A DNA stretch of 64,000 nt, taken from NCBI GenBank assembly GCA_964016885.1, contig CAXHJY010000065.1, forward strand, positions 1-64,000, given 5' to 3'. The first letter of the stretch is position 1. Every line of letters begins with the position of its first letter. Of this stretch, positions 16,575 to 47,572 are shown piece after piece. Origin of the DNA: Eledone cirrhosa (Eukaryota). A program made the translations under genes and the position numbers. The notes below the pieces were generated by a model. That model saw nothing but the letters and a program-made list of their open reading frames with translations, did not search any database and was not told where the DNA came from.

Positions 16575-19500
16575 TGACCATGCTGTAAAATGGAGGGGTA
16601 GAGAGGGCCCTTGAGTCTAGTAGGACATCCTCTCTAGTGCTGGTGGCACAAATAAAAGCACCCAGTCCATGCTGTAAAGTGGCGCTGGTGTTAGGAAGGG
16701 CATCCAACCAGTGTATCAATGCCAAAACGCTTATCAGCACAGCAACAAATAAGAACAAAAACAAAATATGAAGACGTCGCATCTCAGAGTTGCAACACTT
16801 AATGTTGGCACTCGCAGAGTTAGATCTGCTGAAATAGCGGAGATGCTGGAGAGAAGGCAGGTTGATGTGTGCTGCGTGCAAGAGGTGGAATGTAGAGGTG
16901 CCTCTGTGAGACTAGTCGTAGGCAAACGTCTTAGCTATAAGCTATTCTGGGTAGGTAAGGATGATGGGTTAGGGGGAGTGGGCATTTTCCTGGCTGAGAA
17001 ATGGATCAATAAGACAATAGAGATAGTTCGAGTTAGTAATCGAATAATTAAGCTTAGATTAGTTGTAGGCAGGAGACTACTGACAATCATCTCGGCCTAT
17101 GCTCCCCAAGCAGGCCTAGGCAAAGATGAGAAAGACTGCTTTTACGAGCAACTTTTACAAACAATCGCAATGACAGCGGACGGAGACATCGTTATGCTAG
17201 CAGGAGACTTCAATGGTCATGTTGGACAGCTCCAGGATGGTTACACTGGGGTACATGGTGGGCACGGTTACGGCTCAAGAAATGAAGAAGAAGTGAGACT
17301 TCTTGAATTTTGTGATGCAGGTACATTGACTATTTGCAACACAAACTTCCAGAAACCTGCCAATCACCTAATAACCTACAAATCTGGTGAGCACATAAGC
17401 CAGATTGACTTCTTACTAGTTAGGCAGCGGGACAGGCAGATAGTGTCTAATACCAAGGCATACCCTGGGGAAGAATGTACCCCACAGCATAGGTTAGTTG
17501 TTAGTGATATCTCAGTAAGCAAGAGATGGAATGAGACATATAGGAAGGTGTGGAGAAGAAAGGTCTGGAAGCTAAAAGACCTTTCACTAAAATACAAATT
17601 TAGGAAAGCCCTTCAAGATGTATATGACGAAAAAGAAGACGATTTAGAGATGTATGACATAGATAATAACTGGAATTTCTTACGTCACAACTTGCTGCAG
17701 GCTACTGATGAAACTTGTGGCTGGAGCAGAGCTCCAACCAGACAGAGAGTGACCTGGTGGTGGAACAGCACAGTAGATAAGGCCATTAGAGACAAAAGAC
17801 TAGCATGGAAGGCTTGGAAAAAGGGTGGGAGTAGGGAAGAATATACAGCCATTAAGAGAGAAGCTAGACGTCAGGTGTACTTAGCACGCAGGGAGGCGGA
17901 GAGTAGGAGGTTTGCCAATGTTCAGCGACGGGAAGATCAGAGGCGTGCGGTGTTCCACATTGCAAGGCAGTGTGTCAATGCAAATCAGGATGTTGTTAGA
18001 GATAAATGTGTCCGGGATGATGCCGGTGTACTTAGTGTCACAAATGATCAGAAAAAGGAGGCCTGGAAATGTCATTATGAGAGACTGATGAATGTGGAGA
18101 ACGAATGGGAGAGAGAAATTACCCTTAGTAGATCCGACAGAGGGACCAGCTATTGAGATTGACGAATATAGGGTCCAAGAGGCGATTAGGGAAATGAAAA
18201 ATGGTAAGGCTGCTGGACCATCGGGAATAGTTGCTGAGATGCTGAAGGCATCAGGGGACGTAGGCACTAAACTGGTTGCACACATCATCAATCAGGCTAT
18301 ATATGGTGGTGTCATACCCAAAGAATGGTGCAGCAGTATTCTCATAAATTGCTACAAAGGTAAAGGGGATGCTCTGGAGAGGAGCAATTATAGGGGTATA
18401 AAACTGATAGATCAGGTTACGAAAGTGGCAGAAAGGATATTAGCACAACTAATTAGAGAAAGGGTCAAACTAGATGAGATGCAGTTTGGTTTTGTGCCTG
18501 GGAAGAGTACAACAGATGCCCTCTTCTTGGTGAGACAATTGCAAGAGAGGTTCTTAGAGAAAAATAAGCCACTATACTTAGCCTTTGTTGACCTAGAGAA
18601 GGCCTTTGATAGGGTACCCCGATCTGTCATCTGGTGGTCCCTAAGGAAGCTAGGTGTTGAGGAATGGCTTGTGAGGACAGTACAAATTTTGTACAGAGGT
18701 ACTCTCAGTAAAGTCAGAGTAGGAATGGAGTTTAGTGAGGAATTCCAGATACAAGTAGGAGTACATCAGGGTTCGGTCCTCAGCCCGCTCTTGTTCATTA
18801 TAGTCCTCCAAGCCATAACAGAGGAGTTTAAGACTGGCTGTCCATGGGAACTTCTCTATGCTGATGATCTGGTTCTTATAGCAGAATCAGTAGAGGAGCT
18901 AGAGAATAAATTCTAGCTATGGAAATAGCAGTTGGAAGCAAAAGGACTGAGAGTGAACCTAGCTAAGACAAAAGTGTTGATGAGTAGAAAAGAGGACAAA
19001 ACCCTGATTCCATCAGGGAAATGGCCATGTTCGATATGCAGAAAAGGAACAGGCATAAATTCTATAAAATGCACACAATGCAGATCCTGGCTACACAAGA
19101 GATGTAGCGGGATAGCAGGCAAACTAACAGGTAGGGAGAAATATGTATGCAGTAGATGTACAGGGAAATTAGACAGTAGAAGTCGCATTGATAGACACAT
19201 TTTTCAAATGCAGGAGGGCGCTATAGAAGTGGTAGATAGCTTCCGGTACCTAAGAGATCAGATTAACATGGGAGGAGGATGTTCCGAGGCCATAGTATCT
19301 AAAATAAGGATGGGTTGGAAGAAGTTTAGAGAGCTGCTTCCTCTGTTGACGAAGAAGGGTTTCTCCCTGCGTACGAAAAGCCGGTTGTATGATGCCTGTG
19401 TGAGGAGCGCGATGCTGCATGGTAGTGAGACATGGGCAGCAACTGTAGAGGATATGCGACGGCTGGAGAGAAATGAGGAAAGCATGCTCCGTTGGATGTG

Positions 19501-19855
19501 CAGTGTAAATGTACGTGAACGACCCATAATAAATGTGTTGAGAGAGAAACTGTGTCTGAGAGGGATAGAATGTAATGTACGGGAGATGAGACTGAGGTGG
19601 TATGGACATGTGATGCGCATGGAGGATGACCGATGGGTTAAGAAGTGCCAGGAAATGCCAGTTGAAGGAAGACGTGGTAGAGGTAGACCACGAAGAACAT
19701 GGGCGGAGGTGGTGAGAACAGACCTCAGATCATTGAAGCTCATGGTGGAGATGACGAAGGACCGTGATGAGTGGAGAGATGCTGTGCTGAATAAGACCCG
19801 TCCCACCCTTGCAAGCAGGGAAAAGTGGACGTAAAATGATGATGATGATGATGAT
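16575..19855 (+). mobile_element. Near full-length RTE-clade LINE copy B (5' UTR, APE-RT-PHD ORF, short 3' end, (GAT)n)
   Basis: ATG at 16768. APE motifs (ATLNVGT, VQE, GDFNGHVG, QIDF, QHRLV); RT motifs (QFGF, FVDLEKAFD, QGSVLSP, YADD). One frameshift near 18110, TAG stops at ~18914 and ~18927, ORF ends at 19834 inside the 3' terminal stem. Inserted in (TA)n. Confidence 0.97.
16768..19834 (+). pseudogene. RTE polyprotein (~1020 aa): APE endonuclease, reverse transcriptase, inserted PHD finger; 1 frameshift and 2 stops
   Basis: ORF track segments 16768-18156, 18092-18916 and 18932-19834 join into one colinear RTE ORF. Confidence 0.93.
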
Positions 19856-19958
19856 ATATATATATATATTTAATTATATATGAATATATATATATATATT
19901 TATTTATATATATATATATTTATTTATATATATATATATTTGTATATATATATATATA

Positions 19959-20042
<84 letters not shown>

Positions 20043-20259
20043 CATATATATATAAGTATGTACACGTACATACATATATGTATACAGACGTACAGTATTA
20101 TGTATATATATATACATACATGCACACATATATATATATGTACGTATGGATTCACCGAACATTTATTATAATGCTCGGTGTGTTTGTAAACAAACATCCC
20201 GTATTAAGCCGTAGTGTCCAGCAACCATCGTTGCTCATTTGTTCAACACTGACAAAGGA

Positions 20260-20302
20260 ACACTGTACTAGTTTCAAGCTTATTAGCTATCGTCAGCAAC
20301 GT
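20260..20302 (-). ncRNA. Minimal type I hammerhead ribozyme (family A, copy a)
   Basis: Minus strand ACGTTG-CTGACGA-TAGCTAATAAGCTT-GAAAC-TA-GTA/CAGTGT. Intact core, palindromic stem III ACTAGT. Confidence 0.75.
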
Positions 20303-20587
20303 ATACCTTCTTGCCAGATTGTTGAACGTCTGAAAGTATATACTTTCCTTATGCATATTAACGGCTGAGCAGCCTAATTTGCATATCGAGTGGGTTAATC
20401 GGCCGGGTGTACCGAAAACGATAAACGGAAAAAATGAAACGTAATTTCATTTCCCACTCTTAGTACGGCTGTTACTTAAATATAAGTATGTACATGTACA
20501 CTCGATATGCAAATTGGGCACTCAGCCGTTAATAGGCATAAGGTAAGTATATACTTTCAGACGTTCAACAATCTGGCAGGAAGGTAT

Positions 20588-20630
20588 ACGTTGCTGATGA
20601 TAGCTAATAAGTTTGAAACTTGTACAGCGT
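20588..20630 (+). ncRNA. Minimal type I hammerhead ribozyme (family A, copy b)
   Basis: ACGTTG-CTGATGA-TAGCTAATAAGTTT-GAAAC-TT-GTA/CAGCGT. Six-bp stem I; predicted cleavage after 20624. Confidence 0.75.
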
Positions 20631-20922
20631 TCCTTTTTCAGTGTTGAACAAACGAGCAATGATGGTTGCTAGACACTACGGCTTAATACGGGATGTTTGT
20701 TTACAAACACACCGAGCATTATAATAAGTGTTCGGTGAATCCATACGTACATATATATATGTGTGCATGTATGTATATATATATACATACTAGTGTACGT
20801 CTGTATACATATATGTATGTACGTGTACATACTTATATTTAAGTAACAGCCGTACGAAGAGTGGGAAATGAAATTTCGTTTCATTTTTTCCGTTTATATA
20901 TATATATATGTATATATTTATT

Positions 20923-21108
20923 TATCCAGGAGATTCCAACCAGAATGGTTGCATTTTTTCAGGGTATGTCAATATTTATTTATAAAACTAACCTATATTA
21001 TATTTTATTTGATGAAAGCGCACCATAGTTTGCCTTGGTGGCCCTTGATATATGTATAATGAAATAAATATGGTTTTATAAATATAGTTTCCATTTGTTA
21101 ATATATTG
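20923..21108 (+). mobile_element. Degenerate single arm of family D with a decayed hammerhead
   Basis: ATTTTAT-TTGATGA-AAGCGCACCATAGTTTGCCTTGGTGGCCCTT-GATAT... is homologous to 44348-44450. The upstream part matches the reverse complement of ~44265-44330. Confidence 0.65.
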
Positions 21109-21140
<32 letters not shown>

Positions 21141-21417
21141 GAATAGAATGAAACGAAATTTCATTTCTCACTCTTAGTACGGCAGTTACTTAAATGTAAG
21201 TATGCATGTATGTATACGTACATACATATATGTATACAGACATACAGTAGTATGTATATATCTACATACATGCACACATTTATATATGCACGTATCGGTT
21301 TACCGAACATTTATTATAATGCTCGGTTTGTTTGTTTGTAAACAAACAAACAGCCCGAATTACACCGTACAGTGCTTACGCAACCACGTTGCCTTTTTGT
21401 TCAACACTGACACAGGA

Positions 21418-21460
21418 ACGATGTACTAGTTTTAAGCTTATTAGCTATCGTCAGCATCGT
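21418..21460 (-). ncRNA. Hammerhead motif (family A, copy c), GAAA>AAAA core mutation
   Basis: Minus strand ACGATG-CTGACGA-TAGCTAATAAGCTT-AAAAC-TA-GTA/CATCGT. Perfect stem I; likely inactive. Confidence 0.6.
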
Positions 21461-21792
21461 ATACCTTCCTGCCAGATGGTTGCACGTCTGAAAGTAGTAC
21501 ATCGTTCCTGTGTCAGTGTTGAACAAAAAGGTGACGTGGTTGCGTAAACACTGTACGGCGTAATTCGGGCTGTTTGTTTACAAACAAACAAACCGAGCAT
21601 TATAATAAATGTTCGGTAAACCGATACGTGCAGATATATATATATGTGTGCATGTATGTATATACATACATACTACTGTACGTCTGTATACATATATGTA
21701 TGTACGTATATATACATACATACTTACATTTAAGTAACTGCCGCACTAAGAGTGAGAAATTAAATTTCGTTTCATTCTATTCCATTTATATA

Positions 21793-21887
<95 letters not shown>

Positions 21888-21956
21888 AGATAGATAGATA
21901 GATAGATATTTATATATACATATATATAGAGAGACAGAGAGAGAGAGAGAGAAAAA

Positions 21957-22265
21957 AAGATGAAATCGAAAATGCAACTGGAGTCTTATTTTTAAAAAAT
22001 ATATATATTTATTTGGTTCCTTTACCGGTTTCGCAGTTCTTCTGCTTTTCAAAAGTAGTTGAGATGGAGGGTCTGTGGTTTTTCTCACATCTACTTTTGA
22101 AAAGCTGAAGAACTACGAAACCGGTAAATGAACCAAATATATATATATATTTTTAAAAAAATAAGACTCTAGTTACATTTTTGATTTCATCTTTTTTTTC
22201 TTTATACTTTCACTCGTGTAGGACACCGGTTATTTTTCATTTTGTAAAAAAAAAATCACTTTCTA
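21957..22265. mobile_element. Fold-back element, family B, second copy
   Basis: Arms ~21957-22064 and ~22084-22195, each with GAAAC-CG-GTA (palindrome ACCGGT). The right-only tail at 22196-22265 matches the reverse complement of 1075-1143. The spacer differs from the first copy. Confidence 0.7.
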
Positions 22266-22306
22266 ATATATATATATATTTATATATATTTATATATATA
22301 TATATT

Positions 22307-22338
<32 letters not shown>

Positions 22339-22641
22339 TATATATATATATTTATATTTATATATATATATTTATACATGGAAAAGAATTAAATGAAATT
22401 TCATTTTTTACTCTTAGTACGGCTGATAATTAAATATAAGTATGTATACGTACATACATATATGTATACAGACGTACAGTAGTATGTATATATATACATA
22501 CATGCACGCATATATATATGTACGTATGGGTTTACCGAACATTTATCATAATGTTCGGTTTGTTTGTAAACAAACAGCCCGAATTAAGCCGTACAGTGTT
22601 CGGCAACCATAGTTGCCCTTTTGTTCAACACTGACAAAGGA

Positions 22642-22684
22642 ATGATGAACTAGTTTCAAGCTTATTAGTTATCGTCAGCCCCGT
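22642..22684 (-). ncRNA. Hammerhead motif (family A, copy d)
   Basis: Minus strand CTGACGA-TAACTAATAAGCTT-GAAAC-TA-GTT. Core intact, stem I decayed. Confidence 0.55.
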
Positions 22685-23070
22685 ATACGTTCCTGTCAGA
22701 TGATTGAACATTTGAAAGTATATACTTTCCTGATGCATATTAATGGCTGAGCAGCCTAATTTGCATATCGAGTTAGTTAGTCGGCCGGGCGTACCGAAAA
22801 CGATAAATGGAAAAGAATGAAATGAAATTTCATTTCGCACTCTTAGTACAGCTGATACTTAAATATAAGTATGTACACGTACATACATATATGTATACAG
22901 ACATACATTAGTATGTATATATATACATACATGCACACATATATATATGTACGTATGGGTTTATTGAACATTTATTATAATGTTCGGTTTGTTTGTAAAC
23001 AAACAGCCCGAATTAAGCCGTAAAGTGTTCAGCAACCATCGTTGCCTTTTTGTTCAACACTGACAAAGGA

Positions 23071-23113
23071 ACAATGAACTACTTTCAAGCTTATTAGCTA
23101 TCATCAGCACTGT
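23071..23113 (-). ncRNA. Hammerhead motif (family A, copy e), 429 bp from copy d
   Basis: Minus strand ACAGTG-CTGATGA-TAGCTAATAAGCTT-GAAAG-TA-GTT/CATTGT. Stem I is retained with a different sequence. Confidence 0.55.
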
Positions 23114-23535
23114 ATAACTTCCTGTTAGATGACAAACAAACCGAACATTATAATAAATGTTCGGTAAACCCATACATATATATATGTGTGCATGCATGTA
23201 TATATATACATACTACTGTACATCTGTATACATATACAGGCGAGAACCCCATTGGCAAATTCATGTACTAAATGGAGTTGCGTCCCCCTGGGGACTATAT
23301 ATTCGAGGCCTGCCTAGGCATAAGCCTCTCTCACATCCTGAACTTCGAAGGAACAAGAACACCTGAGACCTTGTCAAGAGATGACTCCTGCCTCACTTCC
23401 TTCCCCCGCAAGAAGAAGAATACCGACAGCCTAAAGAAATACTCGAACACCACCAAGAGAAGATTTCTGTTCTTCTCTTCACACTCCAGTCTGGGAGATG
23501 TGACCAACTGAACATCTACATGTGGTAACAAATTC

Positions 23536-24780
23536 ATCATCATCATCATCATCACCGTTTTACGTCCGTTCTTCCACGCTAGCATGGGTTAGACGGGTTG
23601 TCCTGTTGTGGGCAGTGTCTGGTCGGCTGACCATGCCTTGCTCATACAGGAACTGATCTGGCTTGATTTCTACAGCTGGATGCCCTTCCTAACACCAACC
23701 TCATTTACAGTGAGTGCTGGGTGCTTTTTCGTGGCGCCTACACGTCCACTTTACAGTGTGGGCTGGGTGCTTTTTTGCCGTGGCACCTCCACGACCACCT
23801 TGCGGTGGGGGGAGTGGGGGCATATTGTTTATATGCTTCAGCATGTACCCATGGGAGGTCGGGTACCCTGTATTACTGCGTGACGCCAGAAGTCACGGTC
23901 GTGTGTCATTGACTTTGAGAGGTGTAGTTGGGTAAGGTCGGCTTTTATCACCTCATCCCAAGTCATCTTGGGTCTCCCCACTCCGCGGTTTCCATCAACA
24001 TCTAGTGCTCTGCACCTTTTTATGCAGCTGTCATCCTTCATACGCATCACATGTCCATACCAGCGTAACCGCCTCTCCTGCACGCAGCATTTGATTCCTC
24101 TTATGCTCAGTCTCTCTCTCAATTCCTTTATGCTTTGTCGTTCACGTATATTACTGTTACACATCCATCGGAGCATGCAGGCTTCGTTTCTCTCTAATCT
24201 ACGTAAGTCTTCCACCTTCAGCGCCCAGGTCTCACTACCATGCAACATCGCTGTTCGGATACACGCATCATACAGTCTGCCTTTCATTCTGAGGGAGAAG
24301 CCTTTTGCAGCTAGCAGTGGTAGTAGTTCCCTAAACTTCTTCCATCCCGTTCTTACCCTAGTTATTGTACTTTCTGAGCACCCACCTCCGTTGCTAATTC
24401 GGTCACCTAGGTAGCAGAAGCTGTCTACTGTTTCTACAGGGCCCTCCCAGAGATTGGTGGTACTTGTTTCCTGTGGCTGTTTGCTTGCTGTTTCAGCACA
24501 GCTGCTGCATGTGAATCCTACATTCTTAATTAAGCTTCCTGAGATCCCGCTACATCTCTTGTGTACCCATTGTTTGCATTTGGGGCAGAGAATGGAGTTC
24601 CTACCTACACCTTTCCTACATACTGAGCAAGGCCATTTCCCTGAGGGGATCTGGGTTCTGTTTTCTCGTCTACTTACAAGGACCTTAGTCTTTGTCATGT
24701 TGACTTTGAGGCCCTTTCTCTCTAGTCCCTGCTTCCAGGTTTGGAATTTATTCTCTAGTTCTACCATAGATTCAGCTATG
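23536..24780 (-). mobile_element. RTE LINE copy C, 5'-truncated, with an open 309-aa C-terminal ORF (23838-24767) including the PHD finger
   Basis: LKVNMTKTKVL-PHD-SFCYLG...RLRWYGHV...GRPK, followed by a long 3' UTR and GGACGTAAAACG(GTGAT)(GAT)n. Confidence 0.95.
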
Positions 24781-24980
24781 AATTATTTATATTAATTTAT
24801 TTGACTTCTGTGAAGTAAAACCTTGTCACAACACTCGCCGGCATTTATTGTCATTCTTGATAATATATATATATACACTGATACTAATATCCTAAAGAAT
24901 TTTAAAGAGTTCAGGATTCCTTTTCCTTTAAGCACATAATTTACAGGGAATAATGAGGGTCAATGGCTACGTTAATTTAT

Positions 24981-25191: not shown

Positions 25192-25243
25192 TTTATTAGC
25201 CAACAATGTTTCGTCCTATTAAGGACTCATCAGGGCAATTAAA
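25192..25243 (-). ncRNA. Type I hammerhead ribozyme (family F, inverted copy)
   Basis: Reverse complement of 26338-26389. Confidence 0.75.
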
Positions 25244-26337: not shown

Positions 26338-26389
26338 TTTAATTGCCCTGATGAGTCCTTAATAGGACGAAACATTGTTGGCTAATAAA
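26338..26389 (+). ncRNA. Type I hammerhead ribozyme (family F)
   Basis: AATTGCC-CTGATGA-GTCCT-TAAT-AGGAC-GAAAC-ATT-GTT/GGCTAAT. Canonical core with a G10.1-C11.1 stem II; predicted cleavage after 26379. Confidence 0.8.
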
Positions 26390-44052: not shown

Positions 44053-44195
44053 TATATATATACAAAGGTTATATTTAATTTGTTGGAATTCAACAAACTT
44101 AAAAGTTTTTTAACTGATATAAAGCACTCAACAAATTAGTGGAGTAAATATTCAATATATTAATAAATGGAAACTATATTTATAAAACCATAATT

Positions 44196-44259
44196 ATTTT
44201 ATTATATATATTTCAAGGGCAACCAAGGCAAATTTTGGTGTGCTTTCATCAGATAAAAT
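44196..44259 (-). ncRNA. Type I hammerhead ribozyme (family D, inverted copy)
   Basis: Exact reverse complement of 44348-44411. Confidence 0.7.
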
Positions 44260-44347
44260 ACAAAATTTGTTTTATAAATGTTGACATACCCGCAAAAGAA
44301 CAACCTTGATGGTTGGAGGTTCGCTGGATAGTAATAACAAATTTTGT

Positions 44348-47122: not shown

Positions 47123-47572
47123 GGTGAAGGTGCATGGCTTAGTGGTTAAAGCATTGGGCTTGCAATCAAAAGGTTGTGAGTTCAATTCTCAAACCGGGAG
47201 ATGTGTTGTTTCCTTGAGCAAGACACTTTATTTTCACATTGCTTCAGTTTACTCAGTTGTATAAATGAGATGACAGGACTGGGGTCCCTCTCATTCCACT
47301 GCAAGGCGATCGTGGAGGTGCCACGGCAAAAAAGCACCCAGCTCACACTGTAAAGTGGACGTGTAAGCGCTACGGAAAAAAAGCACCCAGCACTTACTGT
47401 AAATGAGGTTGGTGTTAGGAAGGGCATCCAGCTGTAGAATTCAAGCCAGAATCAGTTCCTGTATGAGCAAGACAAGGTCAGCCGACCAGACACTACCCAC
47501 AACAGAACAACCCGTCTAACCCATGCTAGCATGGAAGAACGGACGTAAAACGGTGATGATGATGATGATGAT
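47123..47572 (+). mobile_element. Complete composite SINE: tRNA head + CORE-like domain + duplicated RTE-UTR module + RTE 3' tail
   Basis: A-box TGGCTTAGTGG, B-box GAGTTCAATTC, TCCTTGAGCAAGACACTT, two GGTGCCACG...GCACCCAG...CTGTAAA-type units, and a tail matching the RTE copy C/E 3' end with (GAT)n. Confidence 0.85.

Follow-up and report, generated by a model that had tools for sequence, protein, structure and literature searches.

The 64,000-nucleotide stretch analyzed here (the window; positions 1-64000 of contig CAXHJY010000065.1, Eledone cirrhosa assembly GCA_964016885.1) probably contains three decayed insertions of a high-copy, noncoding retrozyme that would carry an internal promoter, cleave itself as a dimer, and be copied in trans by a Penelope-like reverse transcriptase (RT). 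Judged by features that can be tested at the sequence level, the 429-nt repeat is a metazoan retrozyme without long terminal repeats (non-LTR retrozyme), an element class that is already known. Metazoan non-LTR retrozymes are described, in the accessible parts of two accounts, as noncoding tandem units of 150-450 bp with low GC and one type I hammerhead each (PMC7229834; bioRxiv 10.64898/2026.07.22.740005). Our unit resembles those described in its length, tandem arrangement from dimers to multimers, low GC, single type I hammerhead, and lack of coding capacity, and it likewise shares its genome with autonomous Penelope elements (open reading frames [ORFs] with RT and GIY-YIG domains and an ORF of the Hydra type). 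It differs from published metazoan retrozymes in being known here from DNA and not from RNA or circles. We number unit positions along 22380-22808 of the window on the plus strand; the hammerhead, and hence the inferred RNA, lies on the opposite strand, with the RNA reading from 429 to 1.

The family is abundant in this genome of 3.0 Gb and 1,796 contigs. A 30-nt hammerhead core has 11,136 exact matches (control, 0), a 24-mer from a different part of the unit has 18,011, and head-to-tail neighbors spaced 417-437 nt apart form 2,737 pairs (control, 0). The first-pass annotation of this DNA had proposed a noncoding, head-to-tail repeat with one type I hammerhead per unit and had suggested a search of the genome for further tandem copies; the copy counts, tandem pairs, and alignments all bear this out. 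On the contig that we call C1 there are long arrays, some of more than 20 units, and one locus (L323) holds at least 23. ORFs within the unit are short or low in complexity, as had been noted, and GC content across the unit region is 0.31 and 0.37 in two 2-kb bins, under 45%. An LTR-internal-LTR layout was found in none of 59 loci, in which primer-binding sites and polypurine tracts were not searched for. In runs X1-X3 (one sample, contigs) the unit is also a very high-copy repeat, an observation with no bearing on expression.

Aligning the unit to the window with blastn yields eight segments, which we group into three insertions (Table 1). In each, the inferred 5' ends of the arms face one another: a against b, c against c', and the d-e tandem against a short stub. 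At non-CpG sites, used for all divergences between arms and units, members of a pair differ by 4.7% (a/b), 4.3% (c/c'), and 6.9% (d/e), compared with 11.0 to 15.5% between the insertions, which argues for three subfamilies and separate arrivals. The insertions are mostly flanked by (TA)n. Arm b meets arm a at its inferred 5' end and stops at unit position 1 on its 3' side, followed by (TA)n; arm c' is truncated inside the hammerhead and lacks CUGANGA. Much of what had been read from this locus stands. The stretch 22380-22808 does recur from 22809 (91.7% over 324 nt) and thus has a 429-nt period, the minus-strand hammerheads d and e (CTGA at 22678 and 23107) are separated by 429 bp, and the three quoted helix I pairings occur in copies b, c, and e. 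Four arm ends said to stop at a common position beside (TA)n do so near unit position 1 (20891, 21141, 21783, and 22380), and a fifth, 20047, falls on a second preferred end site at unit position 52. Two points of layout need revision. The direct repeat placed at 20051 and 20481 matches for only about 20 nt before the sequence inverts at 20500, and the supposed tandem and inverted array, although its repeats and inversions are present, is not one array but three insertions of three subfamilies, separated by an unrelated Hydra-type pseudo-LTR fragment and a palindrome of ~270 nt.

The ends of the copies bear on how they were made. We examined 59 loci that take in the first 100 places of the 24-mer search, in the first 23 Mb of contig C1. 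From 148 initial arms, 47 were removed as noise, namely single segments within the self-palindromic, TA-rich part of the unit (positions 38-150), which left 101; arms touching a locus edge were likewise excluded. The inferred RNA 3' end falls at unit positions 1-12 in 46 of the 101 arms (33 with a microsatellite flank) and at positions 44-62 in 37 (32 with such a flank), while the 18 ends elsewhere have a microsatellite flank in 5 cases. Two preferred sites about 51 nt apart therefore take 83 of 101 arms, and 65 of the 83 abut a microsatellite. The inferred 5' ends are scattered, and many copies have a single arm. Head-to-head arms occur in 27 of the 59 loci, tail-to-tail arms were flagged by our script in none, and the polarity of arms follows the hammerhead strand. 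Each of the two putative RT starts has 3-5 nt in common with (TA)n.

From the two-site ends, the head-to-head arms, and the (TA)n flanks, we infer that the copies were made through target-primed reverse transcription by a Penelope-type enzyme, and these marks fit the retrozyme label and the retrotransposition in trans that had been suggested from the window. Among the general Penelope marks given in the available text of PMC8557442 are a tail, an inverted truncated copy, and a (TA)n target. In vitro, as far as the available portion of PMC11167929 describes it, the anole Penelope protein uses two adjacent internal RT starts, cleaves both strands and extends from them, and acts on AT-rich targets. 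The unit shares with the elements of both reports (Poseidon PAc and the Hydra clade) a tail, an inverted 5'-truncated partner, partial tandems, and (TA)n targets; it differs in having no ORF, in a tail of about 51 nt rather than 30-40, and, compared with Poseidon PAc, which starts without homology, in start sites that share nucleotides with the target. Mobilization of animal retrozymes by Penelope enzymes, by way of circles, has been proposed before, to judge from the accessible parts of Cervera and de la Pena (2020; PMC7229834) and Li, Clavereau and Pollet (2026). Within those parts, published accounts of retrozymes describe no target site, end positions, head-to-head arms, or promoter and leave the mobilization mechanism open. 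Within an incomplete literature of largely open papers, our searches turned up no account of this family and none of a retrozyme with a U6-type promoter; they also returned neither a measured Penelope end signature on a retrozyme nor a promoter matched to host U6 and common to hammerhead families. What our analysis contributes is a Penelope insertion signature, complete with exact putative RT start sites, on an element that has no ORF.

The hammerhead is a type I motif of the canonical metazoan kind and is predicted from its folding to work as a dimer. It had been called minimal, a term defined for a Penelope-type hammerhead in PMC4209133, where the canonical metazoan type is distinguished from it in the part we could consult; the unit instead has a 6-bp helix I, a 4-bp helix II, and a 1-2-bp palindromic helix III. 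Hammerheads of a type that works as a dimer are described in the available portions of PMC4209133 and PMC7229834. Here a lone A-U pair that encloses the palindrome CUAG makes up helix III. Closing it within one hammerhead is predicted to cost 5.4 kcal/mol, and two palindromes co-fold at -6.8. A single pair with a palindromic tetraloop also characterizes axolotl HHR_Amex1, whose cleavage is efficient in dimeric form only, according to the excerpts available. Helix I extends beyond a bulge as a longer, interrupted stem, and a full copy folds with z = -7.15. In an alignment of 20 copies, the proposed structure pairs in 94.6% of cells, compared with 30-43% when it is slid. Helix I covaries across family copies, with the pair 40/76 reading GU in 10 rows, AU in 5, UG in 4, and CG in 1.

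Several observations temper this picture of the ribozyme. Most of the covariation signal comes from one pair, and relatedness of the copies, as the tool cautions, inflates its shuffles. In addition, only one of nine Xenopus dimers cleaved in the accessible part of the preprint by Li et al. In the window, one of the five cores (a) is intact. Both d and e are damaged, so this 429-bp pair could hardly release a monomer itself; intact tandem hammerheads are found elsewhere, in L047 and L108. The GTA cleavage triplet reported earlier is found in core a, and the d/e pair reads GTT. Rfam gave no match to the family's hammerheads in the window at E<=1, its Hammerhead_1 matches (25195-25239 and 26342-26386) belonging to another family; its microRNA matches are TA-rich noise.

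What served as the template can be judged from where arms end relative to the predicted cut site, between unit positions 269 and 268. This site is crossed by 61 of the 83 arms with canonical ends; 54 extend past the predicted transcription start described below, and 30 span more than one unit. There is no pile-up of 5' ends in these 83 arms at the cut site (3, at positions 264-272) or at the predicted start (4). Since most arms run through the cut site, the usual template would be a circle or an uncut multimer and not a linear cut monomer. The earlier proposal of released RNAs of about 429 nt that could circularize and be retrotransposed in trans fits as far as copying in trans is concerned and needs correction as regards a linear monomer as usual template. 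Shared rare variants speak to the circle more closely. All nine units in the two arms of L317 carry the same two rare variants and are otherwise almost identical; in L262, one rare variant occurs in seven full units of one arm and a second in six of them. This test was positive at L317, partial at L262 and L280, and uninformative at most loci. The L317 and L262 pattern fits rolling copies of what may have been one circle. In the arrays of L108 and L326, two variants of the unit take turns (ABAB), an order expected of a two-unit circle or of a duplicated dimer.

Some of these results also weigh against a circular template. A homogeneous source array or DNA-level homogenization would resemble the L317 and L262 pattern, and unequal crossover or gene conversion would likewise homogenize arrays such as the two-unit ABAB arrays. 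Most pairs within a locus share 0-1 rare variants, and a single-circle template would thus be visible in a few young loci only. It is also possible, although we find it somewhat doubtful, that the template is an uncut read-through multimer that makes a circle unneeded, with the hammerhead acting as a protein-assisted or binding module, as in anole Penelope. Arms do cross the cut site freely, and long source arrays exist (L322 and L323). Among the closest relatives of unit d, 32 of 34 cores carry the GUU triplet, which marks one widespread subfamily. In the sections of PMC11167929 that we draw on, hammerhead mutants had no effect on insertion, and the principal substrate was RNA that had not been cut. 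Yet the catalytic core is well kept in the family (0.985-0.988 at non-CpG sites versus a mean of 0.949, in a sample partly picked by core pattern), and units in the long source arrays are diverged, whereas those in L317 and L262 are nearly identical and share rare variants.

Upstream of the hammerhead, the RNA strand of the unit carries TATGCAAATTAG (positions 388-377), TCAGC, and a TATA-like word (345), with the hammerhead core at 299. This block resembles the promoters of host small nuclear RNA (snRNA) genes, and on balance it is more likely than not a working promoter; divergent hammerhead repeats have it in the same arrangement. The predicted start lies at about unit positions 310-315 in either register, just before helix I, which corresponds to 20307-20312 in arm a and 22689-22694 in unit d. 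We noticed an octamer in the unit first and compared the host genes afterward. Three distinct types of U6 promoter (7 of 12 loci) have the 12-mer at -77 to -79 and TATA at about -30; the same combination precedes the RNase MRP gene (1 of 1) and, with one mismatch, the best U6atac match (1 of 5). The 12-mer was not found upstream of U1 (0/14), U2 (0/14), U5 (0/10), or U4 (0/5), where YCAGT near -55 occurs instead. Nine further U6 matches (of 10 fetched) and the other four of five U6atac matches, all without the 12-mer, look like promoterless copies and were set aside. In a U6 cluster (contig C19; L147, L148, and L150-L152), 5 of the 10 copies fetched have an insertion between the 12-mer and TATA that shifts the 12-mer out of place. 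The U1, U2, and U5 genes (L153-L180 and L302-L311) have a TATA-like word near -30 in addition to AATTA and YCAGT; a TATA is unusual in animal snRNA genes transcribed by RNA polymerase II (Pol II). Read by eye, TCAGC stands 26 nt before TATA in the unit, as in U1, U2, and U5, and AATTA is absent from the unit at its U1 position (near -90).

The block also recurs beyond the family. With the family's usual next base excluded, the 12-mer stands 67-97 nt ahead of CTGANGA in 854 matches, against 1 in the control, the matches being repeat copies and not independent events. In 17 of 30 such loci there was no BLAST match to the unit. These 17, with 14 picked by hand, make up 31 nonfamily loci. BLAST sorts them into four clusters, of which one is linked to the unit, and leaves two singletons. 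Among the 31, a TATA-like word is kept at +41 to +44 in 21, and 12 give a full hammerhead fold by script. By base composition, the chance of a degenerate 12-mer in 429 nt is about 3e-4, for a motif noticed before the test.

Other features of the block count against a promoter. The distance from 12-mer to TATA is 43 nt in the unit versus 47-49 in U6 and MRP. The 12-mer is exact in 30 of 75 family segments, with 27 ending in TTGG and 8 reading TATGCATATTGG. The TATA word forms the loop of a hairpin and may thus be kept for RNA structure. The generic octamer within the 12-mer is also found, inverted, upstream of the hammerhead in the pseudo-LTR of a Hydra-type Penelope. The RNase P gene (L338; contig C24, 12936134) lacks the 12-mer upstream and has TCAGT and TATA; its U1/U2-like upstream region hints at Pol II transcription. 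A T4-T6 run sits at the tandem junction, where RNA polymerase III (Pol III) would need to read through it. Lastly, the TATA pattern applied to the 31 partly hand-picked loci was loose. A block that is a relic or an RNA-structure element, with passive transcription from host genes or neighbors, would suit the spacing 4-6 nt shorter than in U6 and MRP, the differences of motif between subfamilies, the TATA word in a hairpin loop, and the octamer-like words in other repeats. We nevertheless consider this unlikely, given that motif, strand, and spacing recur in four clusters, one of them linked to the unit, and given the low chance expectation and the U1/U2/U5-like distance from TCAG to TATA.

If the block is a promoter, Pol II is slightly favored over Pol III. 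Pol III is suggested by the match of the 12-mer to U6-type genes, and Pol II by the TCAG-TATA register together with the arms (54 of 83) that reach beyond the predicted start, the multiunit ones among which mostly span the junction T4-T6 run. Our preferred account, pieced together from genomic marks, is as follows. From the 12-mer/TCAG/TATA block, transcription would begin 10-15 nt ahead of the hammerhead core and run on into the next unit, so that each cut-to-cut monomer would carry the promoter 3'-terminally. Too weak alone, the palindromic helix III (ACUAGU) would pair between two hammerheads, and cleavage is predicted to be partial and to leave monomers, multimers, and probably circles. 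A Penelope-type endonuclease/RT would nick both (TA)n strands and begin cDNA at one of the two internal sites, copying through cut site and promoter, sometimes for several rounds, before two 5'-truncated cDNAs join head to head. A bolder version, which we advance tentatively and would not yet bet on, extends a hybrid snRNA promoter across a retrozyme superfamily of this genome and combines it with rolling copying of circles by a (TA)n-targeting Penelope RT. In that version, a U6/MRP-type 12-mer would sit about 5 nt nearer to a U1/U2-type TCAG-TATA core, and transcription, probably by Pol II, would begin at the hammerhead's 5' edge and pass through the T-runs into the next unit. If true, it would supply a complete, testable retrozyme life cycle from genomic marks, with newt satellite 2 as an independent counterpart.

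Newt satellite 2 uses an octamer plus a proximal sequence element. As given in the accessible part of PMC2220036, that hammerhead repeat (Coats, Zhang and Epstein 1994) has an internal snRNA-type promoter reported as Pol II. The unit is similar in pairing a hammerhead with an internal, here candidate, snRNA-type promoter; it differs in a 12-mer that matches host U6, U6atac, and MRP and in a TCAG-TATA spacing like that of U1, U2, and U5. The schistosome Sm-alpha hammerhead repeats, SINE-like (short interspersed element-like) and transcribed by Pol III in the available text of PMC6765202, have their promoter before the hammerhead, so that it closes the cut monomer on the 3' side, as it would in our unit, a likeness that implies that tandems are needed to propagate; the unit's candidate promoter is of the upstream snRNA type instead. 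The insertion signature and a candidate promoter common to host snRNA genes and other hammerhead repeats open three questions to testing: which polymerase makes retrozyme RNA, whether circles serve as template, and from which Penelope clade the enzyme comes.

The genome offers many possible sources of such an enzyme. There are several coding families with RT and GIY-YIG domains (150 scored GIY-YIG matches) and an abundant Hydra-type family with the motifs RWR, DKT, and CxCX5C (113 matches), of which a 365-aa fragment gave no Pfam hit. We examined 77 coding Penelope loci: 30 of the 150 scored matches, 17 longer GIY-YIG stretches, and 30 of the 113 Hydra-type matches. None had the unit as pseudo-LTR or terminus, and the absence of a partner there counts against our reading. 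Hydra- and Neptune-type families ending in (TA)n are the candidate partners. The Hydra-type ORFs beside L031 and L039 were considered and set aside; the element has a different hammerhead and has in common with the unit an 11-nt AT-rich word near the 3' end, too little to name a partner. Units in L085, L101, L102, L111, L124, and L140 that we considered as Penelope termini proved to be neighbors only.

With many coding families and 77 loci examined, and with copies whose end pattern is that of Penelope elements, the unit might be the pseudo-LTR of an unsampled coding family and its copies 5'-truncated remnants. We regard this as very improbable. What adjoins the unit upstream of the hammerhead is another unit and not coding sequence, as in the array of at least 23 units in L323. 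Linkage to a coding Penelope body had been raised as the alternative at the outset; a Penelope protein match lies near 8 of the 59 loci and is joined to the 5' end of an arm in none. The termini of the sampled coding families carry other hammerheads, and we found no pseudo-LTR relative of the unit, compared with Repbase matches for 24 of 57 Xenopus families in the accessible portion of that report. Most improbable of all is a satellite or a DNA repeat like a miniature inverted-repeat transposable element (MITE) or Helitron, spreading at the DNA level with a vestigial hammerhead, as long arrays, ABAB periods, and arms resembling terminal inverted repeats might suggest, given scattered inner ends, outer ends on two fixed sites on either strand, many single-armed copies, and a polarity tied to the hammerhead strand.

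Table 1. Features of the window locus, with strand and basis of assignment
Feature	Position	Strand	Remarks
Insertion 1, arm a	20047..20500	-	Unit positions 52-429 then 1-75; blastn, TRF
(TA)n adjoining arm a	19854-20050		Putative RNA 3' end at unit position 52; TRF
Insertion 1, arm b (inverted)	20500..20891	+	Unit positions 1-394; blastn
Insertion 2, arm c	21141..21496	-	Unit positions 2-341; second subfamily
Insertion 2, arm c' (inverted)	21489..21783	+	Unit positions 1-279
Insertion 3, full unit d and unit e (positions 1-324), head to tail	22380..23132	-	Third subfamily
Insertion 3, short inverted stub	23122..23236	+	Unit positions 80-198
Hammerhead core a	20266..20296	-	Intact; predicted cut after 20266 (GUA)
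Hammerhead core b	20594..20624	+	Helices II and III mismatched
Hammerhead core c	21424..21454	-	GAAA changed to AAAA
Hammerhead core d	22648..22678	-	Triplet GUU; helix I broken
Hammerhead core e	23077..23107	-	Triplet GUU; G.G mismatch in helix III
Candidate promoter, arm a	20334..20385	-	12-mer TATGCAAATTAG 20374-20385, TCAGC 20364-20368, TATA-like 20334-20344
Candidate promoter, arm b	20506..20556	+	12-mer variant ending TTGG, TCAGC, TATA-like
Candidate promoter, unit d	22716..22767	-	12-mer 22756-22767, TCAGC 22746-22750, TATA-like 22716-22726
Hydra-type coding Penelope 3' pseudo-LTR fragment, outside family	20925..21100	+	Own mutated hammerhead
Palindromic high-copy element of ~270 nt (MITE-like), outside family	21945..22205	.	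Fold, depth

Other hammerhead repeats occur in this genome. A longer subfamily at L101:8225-9901 has hammerheads 483 and 511 nt apart and 73-82% identity to the unit. A distant relative of 470 nt forms a long, satellite-like array (L258-L260 and L288; contig C1, ~95.64-95.68 Mb), with helix II fully re-paired, a GUC triplet, and the same layout of 12-mer and TATA as the unit. Family B (L235, L249, and L251), family C (L234, L239, and L247), and L289-L294 are further noncoding hammerhead families with a palindromic helix III and an upstream block as in the 429-nt unit; family B also has partial tandem permutation, with ends that fall at (TA)n. In the window, a perfect 134-nt inverted repeat (25149-25282/26299-26432) surrounds 1 kb of AT-rich DNA; both arms hold a type I hammerhead of another kind (29.1 bits in each with Rfam Hammerhead_1), and it had no match in the coding Penelope loci examined. 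A third hammerhead family is seen as an inverted pair at 44195-44260 (-)/44347-44412 (+), which is the pseudo-LTR of the abundant Hydra-type coding Penelope (clear match in 23 of 30 loci). By eye, the Hydra-type fragment at 20925-21100 and the 3' end of L138 are near-identical; the family is linked to an ORF.

The window holds further features. On either side of the three insertions lie fragments with (TGA)n tails (18932-19834, plus strand; ~23500-24800, minus strand), which resemble 3' ends of RTE-type long interspersed elements. A perfect 129-nt inverted repeat (15704-15832/16201-16329) with 368 nt between its arms had no match in the 42 loci compared. Finally, a tRNA-like match at 47135-47192 on the plus strand (33.2 bits, above the Rfam gathering score) is possibly the head of a SINE.

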